Shown here: one piece after another, positions 33,292-37,714 of the stretch
Layout: every line of letters starts with the position of its first letter
How positions within the stretch are numbered: the stretch's first letter is position 1
Source: Acidobacteriota bacterium
GTDB taxonomy: Bacteria > Acidobacteriota > Blastocatellia > RBC074
DNA length: 64,000 nucleotides
Assembly: GCA_018268995.1 (NCBI GenBank)
Contig: JAFDVL010000102.1
Span: 21,696-85,695 of the forward strand
Reading direction: 5' to 3'
Notes under the pieces: model-generated
What the model saw: the letters and a program-made list of their open reading frames with translations, nothing else
Told to the model about the DNA's origin: nothing
Databases searched by the model: none
Made by a program: the position numbers and the translations under genes

Positions 33292-34260
33292 TTACTTGCC
33301 CTTTCTCCAACTACTATTTCGCTCTCTTGTGATTTCGTGATAATTGGCTTTCGCCTTTTCGAGAAAAGAATTATCTGCTGATATTTTCTCAACAATCCAG
33401 TCTATGAATTCCTGGCTATATTGAGCACTACTATATTGAGATTTGTAGTAGAACCGTGGAATTCCAGAAATATTATAGACAGACCTAACTGACAGAACGT
33501 CATAGTTATTTATTTTGGGCGTAATCTGCAAACGTTCATTTAGTTCTCGAACAATATCAATTTGCCTAAATGGATGGGTGTCGTCTGGGTTGAGTAAACG
33601 GTTTGCTGGTACACTTGGATCATCAACAAGACGGATGACTTTGGGCGAATTAGAAGCTGGATTAGTTTCAGTGTCAGGCACAATCATGATCCTCGCCCCA
33701 ACTGGAGCCTCAACAACCTTTCTAATTCCATCTAGCCAAGAAACTTTTATTATCTCTAATTCCCTATGAAGAAATTGTTGAAGATCATCTGAGGTTCCAG
33801 GTTCACTTTTGGCTCCGTGTCGAAAATATACTGTCCCAGTATTAAACGCGCTTCTCGCTTTGCCATCTCGGCCTTGATAGTTACCAGGGGCAATGAATAC
33901 GAGTGGTACTGAAGTACGACCGATCTCAAGTGCCGCAACCATTTGCCCCTCTTTTTCTACTGCCAGCATGTTAAATTCACTGAAATGTCGCCCTGTATAA
34001 GAGAAAATCTTGTCTGTAATTTTTGCTGGGTCGTAGCTAAGGATAGTTGACACGTCTTGCCCTGATACTTTGCCTTCATCATTCACATTAAACAATAAAA
34101 CACCCCCACCTGAATTTGCCATTGCAACTATGTCTTTGATCACTTCGCACCAATCGCCTTTCGATGAAGTGTCAAAATGCTCTTTGAAATCTATTTGTGC
34201 TGTTTCTTGAGATGAGAGCAGGGCTGATTCGATAATATTACTCATAAGAGGTCCAAACAC
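33292..34260 (-). CDS. AlbA_2 (Schlafen-like, 'divergent AAA') domain protein; putative nucleic-acid-binding or defence-associated.
   Basis: The N-terminus ESALLSSQETAQIDFKEHFD...WCEVIKDIVAMANSGGGVLLFNVNDEG matches the AlbA_2 motif (E..-E.K...D + AFAN.GGG.L..GV). The gene is conspicuously AT-rich compared with its flanks. Confidence 0.55.
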   Translation of the reverse strand: MFGPLMSNIIESALLSSQETAQIDFKEHFDTSSKGDWCEVIKDIVAMANSGGGVLLFNVNDEGKVSGQDVSTILSYDPAKITDKIFSYTGRHFSEFNMLAVEKEGQMVAALEIGRTSVPLVFIAPGNYQGRDGKARSAFNTGTVYFRHGAKSEPGTSDDLQQFLHRELEIIKVSWLDGIRKVVEAPVGARIMIVPDTETNPASNSPKVIRLVDDPSVPANRLLNPDDTHPFRQIDIVRELNERLQITPKINNYDVLSVRSVYNISGIPRFYYKSQYSSAQYSQEFIDWIVEKISADNSFLEKAKANYHEITRERNSSWRKGK

Positions 34261-34352: not shown

Positions 34353-34895
34353 TTACTCGCTGTCATACGGAGGCCGAAAGTAATACAGCTTTGTCTTTGA
34401 CGGTTGGCGGGTGTTATATGCAACATATCCACCGCCCAGTCCCTTCACAAGCAGACTAATATCGCCGCCTAGTCCCCCGTCTGTATTCCCGTCAATCGTG
34501 CGGATTGCCCCCATATTATCGGCGTTGACGATGAAGCCGACATGATTCTTGGCTACGCCTGAGGCGTTAACGGGCATGTTGTATATGTCGCCCGGTTGCG
34601 GATTGGTGACCTGTTTGTAGGCAACCGTGTACCGTTCGATGGCATTGGATTTTTTATTGGACGAACCTGTCAGGCTGAAATTGGCGGGCAGTGGTCTGAC
34701 ACCTGCTTGTGCCAGACACCAATACACAAAATCACCACACCAGCTATTGCCGGGATCGTCTACGTTGTCCGCGACATAACCGGTTTGACGTGAGGTACGG
34801 ATGTATTCAAAGACACGCGCTTTGTTTGTTTTCCAGCCTGTTTTTACCAAGGCTTCCAGAAATGCGATGTAGAGTACGTCCATTGCGGTTGGCAT
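34353..34895 (-). CDS. CHAP-domain (cysteine/histidine-dependent amidohydrolase/peptidase) protein with no signal peptide.
   Basis: CHAP motifs are NSWCGDFVYWCLAQAG (Cys) and GDIYNM...KNHVGFIV (His). ATG at 34893-34895 with a GGAGG RBS. Confidence 0.65.
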   Translation of the reverse strand: MPTAMDVLYIAFLEALVKTGWKTNKARVFEYIRTSRQTGYVADNVDDPGNSWCGDFVYWCLAQAGVRPLPANFSLTGSSNKKSNAIERYTVAYKQVTNPQPGDIYNMPVNASGVAKNHVGFIVNADNMGAIRTIDGNTDGGLGGDISLLVKGLGGGYVAYNTRQPSKTKLYYFRPPYDSE

Positions 34896-34984
34896 AATTC
34901 CTCCTGGGTGAGGGGGAGAGTAACAAGGCAAGCGCGGCAGTAACCAGACTGTAAAGCTTGTCATTACCTAGTTTTTTGCACGCA

Positions 34985-35206
34985 CACAGCCCGCGAAGCG
35001 GGTGGTAGCATAAAGCCTGGGGTGCAACCCCAGGTAACATCGGGTTCGGACACATTAGCCCGCGAAGGCGGGCGATAGCTCACGTGGTTGGCGGAGCAGC
35101 TATCGCCTGCTCCGCAGGCTAGGCCTGATGGCCACATTTTTCCTGGGGTTACGGCTCTCGCCTTCACCCCAGGCTTTACTCGGACGCCCGCCTTCGCGGG
35201 CTGGCA
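34985..35206. repeat. GC-rich cluster of at least seven hairpins with internal symmetry; candidate structured ncRNA or REP/MITE-like element.
   Basis: Hairpins GCCCGC-GAAG-GCGGGC occur three times (34988-35003, 35057-35074, 35184-35204). CCTGGGG...CCCCAGG occurs twice (35016-35034, 35142-35173). Central stems GATAGCT...AGCTATC and GCGGAGCAG-CTATCGC-CTGCTCCGC are also present. The 18-mer AGCCCGCGAAGGCGGGCG has its reverse complement about 110 nt downstream. Confidence 0.5.
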
Positions 35207-35302
35207 AACGAAACGCATCAACAAAAAATGACAAGCTGTAAAGGAGGGCGTTTTATTTAGCGTTACGCCCACCTTCACAGTCGGGCTACTGCCTTATTTG
35301 TA

Positions 35303-37714
35303 CTATTTCTTTTTCCGATTCGCTTTCCCGCGTTCCTCGCATTCACGCAGCATGTCAGTGATGCGTTGGCGTTCATCGGCGGGCAGACGCGGGCCGTAAA
35401 TCGCGAGTCCTTTGCGTAAGGCTTCAGCGGCTTTGGTGTATTCCTGATTCACATAATTTGCCTGATACAAAATTGTGTACAGTTCAAATTTGTCTCCGGC
35501 CAATTCTGCATTCGGCATGGCATCGGCTAGTTTCAATGCCGCTTCAGCATCCTTCAAGGCTCGTGCATTATCCCCTTTGAGGAAGGCGTTATCTGCGCTC
35601 AGCCAGAGCGAGAGGAACAGGCGCATCTTATCGGGTAAATTCTGGGCCAGCTGTAAGGACTGGTTGATATTCAAACGCCCCTTATCAATGTAACTCATTC
35701 GCACGGCATCCGGCAGCTTGCTTTCTTCCCAGCCTGCATACCGAGTGTAGGCCTTGCCAAGGATGTAATTCGATTCGGCCAGCGCAGCATCATCGGCATA
35801 TCGAGCACCACCGAAAATGACGTGCGAAATGGACATGAACTTCGCGGCTTTCAGCAACGAGACTTTTTTCTTGGCCACTTCATTGAAGAGTTGCAGCGCG
35901 GTTTCTGCCTGCTCGACCGCCTCTTTCCAGGGCACGGCATCTACTTCCTTGCCCAGATCAATAAACTTCGCTGCCGGGTCTTTTGACAGCAGAACGTGGG
36001 CCAGAATCATGTGCGCAGGAGGAAATTTTGGATTGATGCCGATGGCTTTGCGCAGGGCTTTTTCCGCTCCGATTTTGTCACCACGAGCAAACAAGACATC
36101 ACCAAGAACGACATACGCAAAGTCATACAGCGGGTAACGCTTGTTGATGGCGCGCAAATCGTTGATGACTTCTTCAGTGTTGCGACCCGCATTAAATTTG
36201 GCTTCGGCGAGCAGCGTCTTGGTTTGGTAATCAGTCGGACGAACTGCCAGCGCTTCACTAAAGCTCTTGATCGCATCTTCCTTCATCCCCAGCGATTGCT
36301 CTGCGCGGCCACGATAGGTAAAGGCCTGATGATAGCCGCCGCCATTGATGCGAATGGCGTCATTGAAAATGGCAATTGCTTCCCGATATTTTTGCTTATT
36401 GAATAGATCAACGCCTTCCTGCAATTTCTTCTCAGCGTCTTTGGTCGGCGTTTTTTCATCGGTCAGATAAATCTGTTTCTGCTGCGTCGTAGATTCGACA
36501 ACTGCTTCCTGATCGCTTTGTGTGAAGGCGGCATTGATCTCATAAGCAGTCGTTTGGTTAGGTTTCACTTCGGCGGGTTGCGTTTGCTGCTTTCCGCCCT
36601 TTGCCAACGTTAGATTTCGCAATCCCACCGGAACGCGAATGGTTCGCTGGCTCCCTGAAGTAAGCGTTCCGACGGCTTTGCCATCCACAGAAACCGTCAC
36701 ACCATCCACTTCTGGATTTGTGATGCGCAAGGTTCCACACGGCGAATCTGCGCTGCATTTTCCAACTTCGGGATAAGACACCACAGAAAGCGGCAATTGA
36801 TTTGCGCTCAGCATCGTCGTGGCATATTGCGGATGCTGGCGATTGTTCGTCATCTTTGGCACTTCATCACGAACGTATGTGCGCAACTCTTCAAAGGTTA
36901 CTTTGCCATCTGCATCAAAATCCGCATTGCCTTGCACGGCTTCGAGCAGACAATAAGTAAAAACACCGTGACCCAGTTCATCTTTTTCCATCGAAGATTC
37001 ATTTTGATCCGCCGCAGACAAATAGCCGATGCCGCGCGGAATGCCTTCCAGCTCTTTCAGCCATTGGTTCTGCGCACGTTGTGTCACTGCCAGTCCGCGC
37101 GAACCACTATCCAACATTACGCCCGCGCTGTGGCAGGTATCGGAAATCACCAGTCCTTTTTTGGCAGGGATGCTGTTTACGGTACGCTTGAAAGTTTCCA
37201 TCCGCATTCCAGATTTTGAAATCGTGCGTGGGTCGGTGTCATAAAGCACAAAGTATGGATATTCCTCGGTTCGTCCCGAAGCTCCTTTTTCCTGCCAGAT
37301 CACGCCGTGGGCCGCAATGAAAACCACAAAGTAATCATCCGGTTTGGATTGTTTCAGCTTCTCCAGTGAGGCTTCGATATTGGCTTTGGTGGCTTGTTCA
37401 TCCACCAGCAGAGAGATATTGGATTCAGGGAAATTGCCGCCTTCATTGCTGCGCAGGAACTTATAAATTTCCGTCGCATCTTCTGCGGCATTTTTCAGAT
37501 TGGAAATTTGATTTCCATCCACATTTTGATCGCCGAATTTATACCGAGAAACGCCAATCACCACTGCCCATAAATTCACATTGCGATTGGCTGCGGCATC
37601 CTCTTTGGTCGCTCCCACCTTGATCGTTAATCCACGATCTCGTGTTTGGGCAATGGCAAGGAAAGTGACGGCACTTAGAAGAATTGTGAGGCTAAGATAA
37701 GAGAGGCGATTCAT
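35303..37714 (-). CDS. Secreted caspase (peptidase C14) domain protein with a C-terminal array of TPR repeats.
   Basis: Signal peptide MNRLSYLSLTILLSAVTFLAIAQ. The caspase His/Cys dyad is FIAAHGV ... ISDTCHSAGV. There are multiple TPR units in the C-terminal 450 aa. Confidence 0.8.
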   Translation of the reverse strand: MNRLSYLSLTILLSAVTFLAIAQTRDRGLTIKVGATKEDAAANRNVNLWAVVIGVSRYKFGDQNVDGNQISNLKNAAEDATEIYKFLRSNEGGNFPESNISLLVDEQATKANIEASLEKLKQSKPDDYFVVFIAAHGVIWQEKGASGRTEEYPYFVLYDTDPRTISKSGMRMETFKRTVNSIPAKKGLVISDTCHSAGVMLDSGSRGLAVTQRAQNQWLKELEGIPRGIGYLSAADQNESSMEKDELGHGVFTYCLLEAVQGNADFDADGKVTFEELRTYVRDEVPKMTNNRQHPQYATTMLSANQLPLSVVSYPEVGKCSADSPCGTLRITNPEVDGVTVSVDGKAVGTLTSGSQRTIRVPVGLRNLTLAKGGKQQTQPAEVKPNQTTAYEINAAFTQSDQEAVVESTTQQKQIYLTDEKTPTKDAEKKLQEGVDLFNKQKYREAIAIFNDAIRINGGGYHQAFTYRGRAEQSLGMKEDAIKSFSEALAVRPTDYQTKTLLAEAKFNAGRNTEEVINDLRAINKRYPLYDFAYVVLGDVLFARGDKIGAEKALRKAIGINPKFPPAHMILAHVLLSKDPAAKFIDLGKEVDAVPWKEAVEQAETALQLFNEVAKKKVSLLKAAKFMSISHVIFGGARYADDAALAESNYILGKAYTRYAGWEESKLPDAVRMSYIDKGRLNINQSLQLAQNLPDKMRLFLSLWLSADNAFLKGDNARALKDAEAALKLADAMPNAELAGDKFELYTILYQANYVNQEYTKAAEALRKGLAIYGPRLPADERQRITDMLRECEERGKANRKKK

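Follow-up and report, generated by a model that had tools for sequence, protein, structure and literature searches.

A probable three-layer nest of non-autonomous repeated DNA between a CHAP-domain gene and a caspase–TPR gene in a Blastocatellia genome

Introduction

What is the symmetric array of GC-rich hairpins that lies between a CHAP-domain gene and a caspase–TPR gene in an Acidobacteriota bacterium (Blastocatellia; RBC074)? The array was noticed in a 64,000-nucleotide (nt) stretch of GenBank assembly GCA_018268995.1 (contig JAFDVL010000102.1, positions 21,696 to 85,695), here called the window, whose own numbering is used throughout. An earlier note, made from the letters of the window alone, placed the array at 34985-35206, judged it too elaborate for a simple terminator and read it either as a structured noncoding RNA (ncRNA), that is a riboswitch or a small RNA (sRNA), or as a miniature inverted-repeat element.

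We consider, with a probability of roughly 0.85, that three layers of non-autonomous mobile or repeated DNA are nested in this region, with no dedicated regulatory RNA among them. The palindrome reaches past the noted array, to 34936-35293, because two further repeat layers surround it: a composite of six hairpins (layer 3) forms the interior of a miniature inverted-repeat transposable element (MITE) derived from the IS4 family (layer 2), and this MITE lies within a 71-nt hairpin that was there before it (layer 1). The intergenic region as a whole (34896-35302), which runs between the caspase–TPR stop codon and the CHAP start and is bordered by two minus-strand genes, folds about 60 kcal/mol better than shuffled sequences on either strand (z = -10.0 and -9.0).

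Results

The hairpin array is a palindromic composite

Layer 3 (34987-35203) is a 217-nt palindrome and a transposase-less member of a dispersed repeat family. It comprises six hairpins of two kinds in the order A> B> A> <A* <B <A, where the arrowheads give the orientation. All of the features first described were present at the stated positions. The three A hairpins were recovered as two exact copies of the 16-mer GCCCGCGAAGGCGGGC, at 35058-35073 on the plus strand and at 35186-35201 on the minus strand, and one 15-nt variant, GCCCGCGAAGCGGGT, at 34989-35003. The two CCTGGGG...CCCCAGG hairpins were located at 35016-35034 and 35142-35173 (two found against 0.01 expected), and the 18-nt inverted repeat over about 110 nt proved to be perfect, with arms at 35057-35074 and 35185-35202 that lie 110 nt apart. 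The proposed A-B-A'-core-B'-A'' layout was correct in its symmetric order, but its core holds a fourth A hairpin, diverged in sequence and lying on the minus strand (A3*, 35104-35120, AGCCTGCGGAGCAGGCG, read from the sequence). Therefore, the array is fully symmetric, with A B A facing A* B A. A3* carries a compensatory C-G to T-A change, and the identical variant occurs elsewhere, for example in L087 (L numbers are locus labels).

The composite can be divided into two units and two inner A hairpins. Unit 1 (A1, linker and B1; AGCCCGCGAAGCGGGTG GTAGCATAAAG CCTGGGGTGCAACCCCAGG) lies at 34988-35034 on the plus strand, folds as two hairpins and is a module related to the Rfam motif Acido-Lenti-1. 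Unit 2 (A4, linker and B2; AGCCCGCGAAGGCGGGCG TCCGAGTAAAG CCTGGGGTGAAGGCGAGAGCCGTAACCCCAGG) lies at 35142-35202 on the minus strand. The inner hairpins A2 (35057-35074, plus strand; AGCCCGCGAAGGCGGGCG) and A3* are spaced by 46 nt, compared with 46-65 nt in the family, and the long B tip of unit 2, with its inner GGC-GAGA-GCC hairpin, represents a recurrent class among the relatives. For the long B loop, a K-turn and other motifs were weighed by eye and dropped. A pseudoknot of the two central stems was also rejected: a loop of 1 nt would have to cross a 9-bp helix, and these stems correspond to the fourth A hairpin and the inverted linkers.

By itself, the A 16-mer was not significant (3 matches at up to 3 mismatches against 0.87 expected). 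It also gave 69 single matches in viral contigs and was discarded as a probe, being a generic GC hairpin. The non-randomness resides in the combination of features, not in the A 16-mer alone.

The composite belongs to a dispersed repeat family

Further copies, for which the earlier note had proposed a search, were sought by scanning one genome per species with a 22-base pattern spanning the A–B unit, GCCCGCGAAGN{9,16}TAAAGCCTGGGG. The composite was found at more than 119 other places among the matches listed, and nearly all of the matched stretches came from metagenome-assembled genomes (MAGs) of Blastocatellia, Pyrinomonadaceae or Chloracidobacterium. Individual MAGs contributed several contigs each, one of them at least 10, and single 8-kb loci held several composites. 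E. coli genomes yielded no match. Most of the 119 listed loci share one dominant architecture, A>-23-B>-~50-A>-~48-65-<A-~50-<B-24-<A, which the window fits. Moreover, a blastn comparison of the window with these loci gave about 226 matches, whose coverage begins and ends abruptly at 34987 and 35203; these positions are therefore the ends of the repeated unit, nearly identical to the extent first described. The composites are found beside unrelated genes and in either orientation.

The proposed covariation analysis was performed on 64 distinct A hairpins that were free of the constraint imposed by the search pattern. Double compensatory changes were present in four of the six stem pairs (G-C/A-T, 35/22; C-G/T-A, 52/7; C-G/G-C, 57/5; C-G/T-A, 47/11), and pairing in the A stem reached 95.8%, compared with 85.5% in column shuffles (maximum 88.3%). 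This covariation proves a constraint on the hairpins, which are under selection.

The A–B unit was also observed in head-to-tail tandem arrays, such as nine copies with a 46-nt period in L132:7088-7500 (OY970193.1, a 7.49-Mb Acidobacteriota chromosome); others lie in L113, L154, L161, L171 and L179, and several loci contain multiple composites inside 1-2 kb. Expansion has therefore proceeded by tandem duplication as well as by dispersal. Two loci, L129 and L139, come from a MAG labelled 'Candidatus Hydrogenedentota' (JAXMOL01), which carries the repeat family together with an intact Y1 transposase gene; this occurrence could reflect horizontal spread or mis-binning. In addition, Logan contigs from independent metagenome assemblies (L002, L003 and L198) break at the element, with two CHAP-bearing ends at 34985/6, just outside its left edge, and one caspase-bearing end at 35181, in the right arm. 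These breaks are consistent with repeated k-mers or with structural polymorphism in the population, either of which interrupts de Bruijn assemblies.

A Y1 transposase gene is associated with the family

A gene for a Y1 (HUH) transposase of 148-150 amino acids was present in five of the loci. The protein matched PF01797 (1.3e-24) and the NCBIfam IS200/IS605 model NF033573 (60.8 bits; cutoff 55). In three of these loci the gene lies exactly between the arms, as A>B>A>[gene]<A<B<A, being intact in L139, a pseudogene in L166 and 5'-truncated in L169; in L109 and L154 it adjoins full composites. The association was further evaluated by an independent test, in which homologues were gathered on protein similarity alone and the flanks of three of them (L319-L321) were examined. 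In all three, A>B>A> lies before the Y1 gene, and <A.. or a complete composite lies after it. All eight members of the Y1 clade in related loci were flanked by A/B modules, and a distant Y1 gene in L215 had no A/B flanks. Because relatives carry the Y1 gene between or next to the modules, the window composite is a gene-less derivative, similar to a MITE or a REPIN (a doublet of repetitive extragenic palindromes, REPs, that forms a hairpin).

Several of the Y1 genes are decaying: the HUH motif has become DHILLL in L319:2501-2947, L166:518-955 has in-frame stops, and L169:194-484 lacks the first ~50 codons. An IS110-family transposase gene adjoins the Y1 gene in L319, and a second, different Y1_Tnp gene lies 1 kb away in L320.

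The Y---Q--HH motif of the transposase is invariant (Y115, Q119, H122 and H123), and a C-terminal tail is conserved. By this signature the protein is an IS200-like transposase of subclass 1.2 of Quentin et al. (2018, PMC6006769). That subclass was characterised as low-copy, not IS-like and 'generally without' terminal hairpins, and no DNA partner was reported for it where it was first described; in the same study, Acidobacteria were found to host REPtron-like Y1 genes of class 3 with hundreds of hairpin copies. Here, the best 120 of the 90% clusters of Y1 proteins were at least 86% identical and were mostly found on one or two contigs. This spread resembles the single-copy behaviour of REP-associated tyrosine transposases (RAYTs), and the gene is apparently low in copy number.

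These arrangements suggest how the composite may have spread. The full-length versions in related Acidobacteriota have an IS200-like Y1 gene between two A-B-A arms, and the window copy is a gene-less derivative of such an element. Such gene-less copies were presumably multiplied in trans by a Y1 transposase recognising the hairpins in single-stranded DNA, by analogy with the biochemistry of IS200/IS605 TnpA and of RAYTs.

An IS4-type MITE encloses the composite

A few loci align with the window past the composite. In those that do, the shared flanks are terminal inverted repeats, CTTGTCATTACCCAAATCTTTGCACG..., which are common to the window, L114, L133, L108, L183 and L249. They delimit layer 2, a 279-nt IS4-family-derived MITE at 34957-35235. 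Its left terminal repeat lies at 34957-34982 (CTTGTCATTACCTAGTTTTTTGCACG), and its right one, partly lost by an internal deletion, at approximately 35210-35235. Perfect 8/8 direct repeats of CTGTAAAG on the plus strand flank the element at 34949-34956 and 35236-35243 as a target-site duplication; L114 has GCTTACGC where the window has this 8-bp sequence.

When metagenomes were scanned for the terminal repeat (CTTGTCATTACC...), at least 120 stretches were obtained. Pairs of the repeat enclose 81 to ~1700 nt, and the copies of 1.57-1.62 kb (L281 and L248) encode an IS4-family DDE transposase (NF033590, 271 and 268 bits; cutoff 160) with Tnp_DNA_bind and Tn5 dimerisation domains. Allowing 0-3 nt of ambiguity at the ends, perfect 8-bp repeats flank 23 of the 59 pairs, the window, L114 and L249 among them, and 7/8 repeats flank another 7 pairs, compared with 1.5% and 1.4% in mismatched controls.

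The interiors of most such MITEs contain no A/B hairpins. One subfamily, comprising the window, L114, L133, L108, L183, L249 and L287, carries the composite with the same internal junctions. Therefore, the composite came to this locus as cargo of an IS4-type MITE. The MITE would have been placed here by an IS4-type DDE transposase, with duplication of the 8 bp CTGTAAAG. We infer this transposition event from what was observed, namely the terminal repeats, the duplicated target and the full-length partner.

Transposition of the composite on its own by way of Y1, with the outer CTTGTCATTACC repeats and the 8-bp repeat being coincidental or part of the composite, is highly unlikely. The outer repeats are a separate family, usually without A/B hairpins and with an IS4 transposase of its own, in which the 8-bp duplication is general. 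It is true that most composites elsewhere have no outer repeats and that the Y1-bearing elements end at the outer A hairpins, but the internal junctions shared by the MITEs of L114, L133, L108, L183 and L249 identify the composite as cargo here.

IS4-type MITEs at other loci (L211, L237, L205, L214, L277 and L318, together with other metagenome loci) have very heterogeneous interiors, many of which are other GC-rich hairpin arrays with GCGNAGC cores, such as CGTCGCGTAGCGACG, GGCCGCGTAGCGGCC and CCGTGGGTTTCAACCCACGG. This heterogeneity suggests that MITEs have repeatedly captured palindromic repeats, or that such repeats have inserted into MITE centres. In L093, L126, L148 and L177, a subfamily of the composite lies between outer inverted repeats of another kind (GGGTGTACGAAGTnAAAGTTAAA) with ambiguous duplications, possibly a second MITE family with the same cargo. 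The duplications flanking a second outer terminal-repeat family, GGGTGTACGAAGT..., were likewise ambiguous.

The MITE interrupts an older hairpin

Outside the MITE, the palindrome continues into the two parts of the interrupted hairpin (layer 1). The left part, at 34936-34956, is the arm GGCAGTAACCAGACTGTAAAG of the pre-existing 71-nt hairpin, and the right part, at 35244-35293, is the rest of it and ends 10 nt from the caspase–TPR stop codon. Deletion in silico of 34957-35243, that is the MITE and one copy of the duplication, restores a near-perfect 71-nt hairpin (-48.3 kcal/mol, z = -10.2), of which intact relatives are present at L150:3419-3489 and L186:874-948. Thus the MITE would have landed in one arm of a 71-nt hairpin just downstream of the caspase–TPR gene.

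Members of this MITE family also split homologous hairpins in L114 and L141, at the homologous 8-mer, and duplications of CCGTGAGG/CCTCACGG recur in the MITE family. These results suggest that insertion into the ~70-nt hairpin family is targeted, in a site- or structure-specific manner. The hairpins themselves form a third dispersed family of ~70-nt near-perfect hairpins (GGCAGTAGCCCGACnGTnAnGGAGGGC...), which is a target of the MITE in different genomes.

Relation to Acido-Lenti-1 and the question of a structured RNA

The idea of an RNA was not unreasonable, because the modules are relatives of the Rfam motif Acido-Lenti-1 (RF01687), which Weinberg et al. (2010, PMC2864571) described only as a candidate sRNA, with 89 representatives in Acidobacteria and Lentisphaerae. 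The seed alignment of the motif (PMC2864571, supplementary file 183) already shows clustered, multi-copy occurrence on both strands. The Rfam search that had been proposed as a check returned no family at threshold in the window. It did give a sub-threshold alignment to the full Acido-Lenti-1 model (1-46) at 34988-35034, where the unit fails with 16 bits against a gathering threshold of 37, and the second unit was not reported in this search. Units of the family in L132, L154, L109, L171, L166 and L179 passed at 37.7-41.8 bits (cutoff 37); therefore, the window units are diverged members of the motif family. They have its architecture of two hairpins and a conserved linker over ~46 nt, in multiple copies in Acidobacteriota MAGs. 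Sub-threshold matches to CRISPR-DR28, sucA-II, the Avashort thermometer, isrG and BTH_s19 were attributed to chance.

The strand on which the module folds was assessed from non-Watson–Crick positions and loops. In its annotated orientation, the RF01687 seed contains 38 A-C mismatches and 8 G-U pairs, and on the opposite strand its loops read as GNRA/GNNA tetraloops and GNA triloops. This bias recurs in the Blastocatellia units (G-T 9 vs A-C 2), whose loops are G-N-A. Therefore, the folding strand is probably the reverse of the Rfam model strand. Hairpin A and the long B tip both have GCGNAGC at their core, a sequence reportedly shown by Hirao and colleagues to form an extraordinarily stable DNA mini-hairpin, which would suit a role in single-stranded DNA.

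Conservation next to the CHAP gene was also evaluated. In the closest CHAP orthologues (92% and 71% amino-acid identity), the element is missing and other genes lie upstream, and nucleotide homology of the CHAP locus stops at 34918, 23 nt upstream of the ATG. Therefore, the element is not a conserved regulator. With no Rfam aptamer match above threshold in the window either, a riboswitch or other cis-regulatory leader is not supported.

A functional structured ncRNA at this locus, whether an Acido-Lenti-1-type sRNA or a riboswitch or leader for the CHAP gene, would have to be reconciled with these orthologues and with an Rfam search that yielded no family at threshold in the window, and we hold it to be very improbable. 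The resemblance of the unit to RF01687 and the relatives that pass its threshold would agree with an sRNA, but the units occur in both orientations of one palindrome, at more than 119 unrelated loci among the matches listed and in arrays of 46-nt period. The stems covary and the loops are of the GNRA/GNA type, yet the G-U/A-C asymmetry puts the folding strand opposite to that of Rfam. Finally, transcription of the region would run along the minus strand, between co-directional genes; the region is nevertheless embedded in a MITE with a target duplication, and its modules flank a transposase gene. Of the two alternatives first offered, the miniature inverted-repeat element thus stands, and does so twice, as a composite repeat and as an IS4-type MITE with its duplication; the riboswitch or sRNA half is not supported, given the absence of a threshold match in Rfam, the orthologues without the element and the unrelated contexts and orientations.

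Flanking genes and possible secondary roles

Both flanking genes lie on the minus strand, the CHAP-domain gene at 34353-34895 and the caspase–TPR gene at 35303-37714, with its stop codon at 35303-35305. The caspase (C14)–TPR protein matches the PADLOC 'caspase' model. A further neighbour also looks defence-like: a Schlafen AlbA_2 + EC042_2821 restriction-endonuclease-like protein at 33292-34260 (minus strand) gave weak PADLOC PDC-S19 matches. The earlier note took the surroundings for an islet of likely foreign genes, and the GC content shows no anomaly in support of this. An open reading frame (ORF) of 104 codons at 34964-35278 (minus strand) crosses the hairpin array, and comparable ORFs that encode similar peptides occur in other copies, for example in L139 and L169. 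The ORF and its likes are by-products of the GC-rich repeat that could be mistaken for genes in annotation. Cassette-like genes on one strand, separated by palindromes, can also recall an attC/integron arrangement; inspection by eye found no GTTRRRY/RYYYAAC core sites, and 358 nt is too large, so this reading was rejected.

Signals for transcription were searched for in the intergenic region. No promoter-like site was found there. Two weak terminator-like matches were obtained against 1.1 expected, which is no commoner than in shuffles, and neither lies at the 3' end of a major hairpin in gene orientation with a real T-tract. This search bears out the view that the array is too elaborate for a simple terminator; an intrinsic terminator was rejected since no T-run follows the main hairpins.

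Across the family, the composites lie between genes, at a median distance of ~50 nt from the neighbouring ORFs. In 68 cases their context was co-directional in 44, convergent in 16 and divergent in 8, compared with 84 divergent of 514 in the background; these counts rest on a crude ORF caller, and the orientation bias is weak. They bear on a further possibility, that an element of mobile origin was later exapted by the host as REPs have been, to act as a transcription barrier, as a 3'-end mRNA stabiliser for caspase–TPR, or as a protein-binding or topology site. Such roles have been reported for REPs (PMC3733652), and the position of the element directly downstream of caspase–TPR, 10 nt from the stop codon within a co-directional pair, would suit them, as would its very stable folding and the mild depletion of composites between divergent genes (8/68 vs 84/514). 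The element is absent beside the CHAP orthologues, however, the main hairpins have no T-run and terminator-like matches do not exceed those in shuffles; together with the weakness of the context bias, this leads us to regard exaptation as unlikely. By analogy with REPs, any effect on the flanking genes, such as a block to read-through or mRNA stabilisation, would be secondary.

Discussion

A nest of mobile and repeated DNA brings together two known kinds of element, a REPIN-like, Y1-associated repeat and an IS4-derived MITE, and the window element is a new member of both. The closest parallel to its innermost layer is the REP/REPIN–RAYT system with its bacterial interspersed mosaic elements (BIMEs) (Nunvar 2010; Bertels & Rainey 2011, PMC3116915; Di Nocera 2013, PMC3733652). 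Both consist of short extragenic palindromes, which for the present family are found in many copies in relatives of the window genome; in both, inverted doublets fold as one long hairpin, as A B A facing A* B A with its 18-nt repeat does in the window; both have a usually low-copy Y1 HUH gene flanked by repeats; and both form clusters, tandem arrays and nests inside other palindromes. In contrast to REPs, each arm here contains three hairpins of two kinds (A-B-A) in place of one REP, and the linkers vary (GACAGC, GATAGC, GGTAGC), with no conserved GTAG/CGTC tag. The RAYT protein has a YIxxNP motif, whereas the protein described here has Y---Q--HH.

Several points weigh against the interpretation proposed here. 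The Y1 protein fails the curated RAYT model NF047646, with 21 bits against a cutoff of 80. The window holds one composite only in its 64 kb, and the scan, in needing 22 exact bases, biased the family sample towards conserved copies. No clean empty site was found for the locus in look-ups with CHAP and caspase–TPR, which returned the same strain or other gene contexts. Moreover, the covariation and the GNRA/GNA loops fit an RNA function as well as a DNA function.

With the transposases of subclass 1.2 (PMC6006769), the Y1 protein shares the Y---Q--HH signature, a conserved C-terminal extension and an apparently low copy number; it differs in being embedded in triple-hairpin inverted modules that have proliferated. 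Acido-Lenti-1 shares with the family a 46-nt, multi-copy module of Acidobacteria, composed of an 8-bp hairpin, a conserved linker of ~12 nt (GCUAnnUUAUGc / GCUUUAUGCU) and a 5-6-bp hairpin. It is listed by Rfam as a candidate sRNA on the opposite strand, whereas the modules studied here are arranged as palindromic composites or in tandem and border a Y1 transposase gene.

The MITE resembles other MITEs of the IS4 family (IS50/Tn5-like) in its terminal inverted repeats, which start with 5'-CT and are identical to those of a 1.6-kb insertion sequence with an IS4 DDE transposase, as well as in its short target duplication, its lack of coding capacity and its many copies. It departs from them in the length of its duplication, 8 bp compared with 9 bp for IS50, in interiors that vary strikingly and are often made up of other palindromic repeat composites, and in insertions that recur at the same position of one hairpin family.

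A broader proposal, to which we give even odds, is that Acido-Lenti-1 is not an sRNA but a single-stranded-DNA hairpin module recognised by subclass 1.2 Y1 (HUH) transposases. It would then represent one more lineage of REPIN-like elements, next to the REPINs that go with RAYTs and the REPtron-like elements of class 3, Acidobacteriota-wide and perhaps also in Lentisphaerota and Planctomycetota. The Rfam model would then be on the wrong strand, and the composites would hitch-hike as cargo in IS4-type MITEs.

For the annotation of the window, a false lead is removed, in that the array is probably selfish repeat DNA and not a regulator of CHAP or caspase–TPR. The wider interest lies in tying Acido-Lenti-1 to subclass 1.2 Y1 transposases and in the suggestion that its Rfam strand is inverted. 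If this proposal is true, it would give a testable identity to an Rfam candidate sRNA that has been without a function since 2010. Subclass 1.2 Y1 transposases would gain a candidate DNA substrate, and bacteria a further lineage of REPIN-like replicators. The locus would also show how palindromic repeats nest in Blastocatellia genomes, a composite within a MITE within a hairpin, which probably helps to fragment metagenome assemblies.

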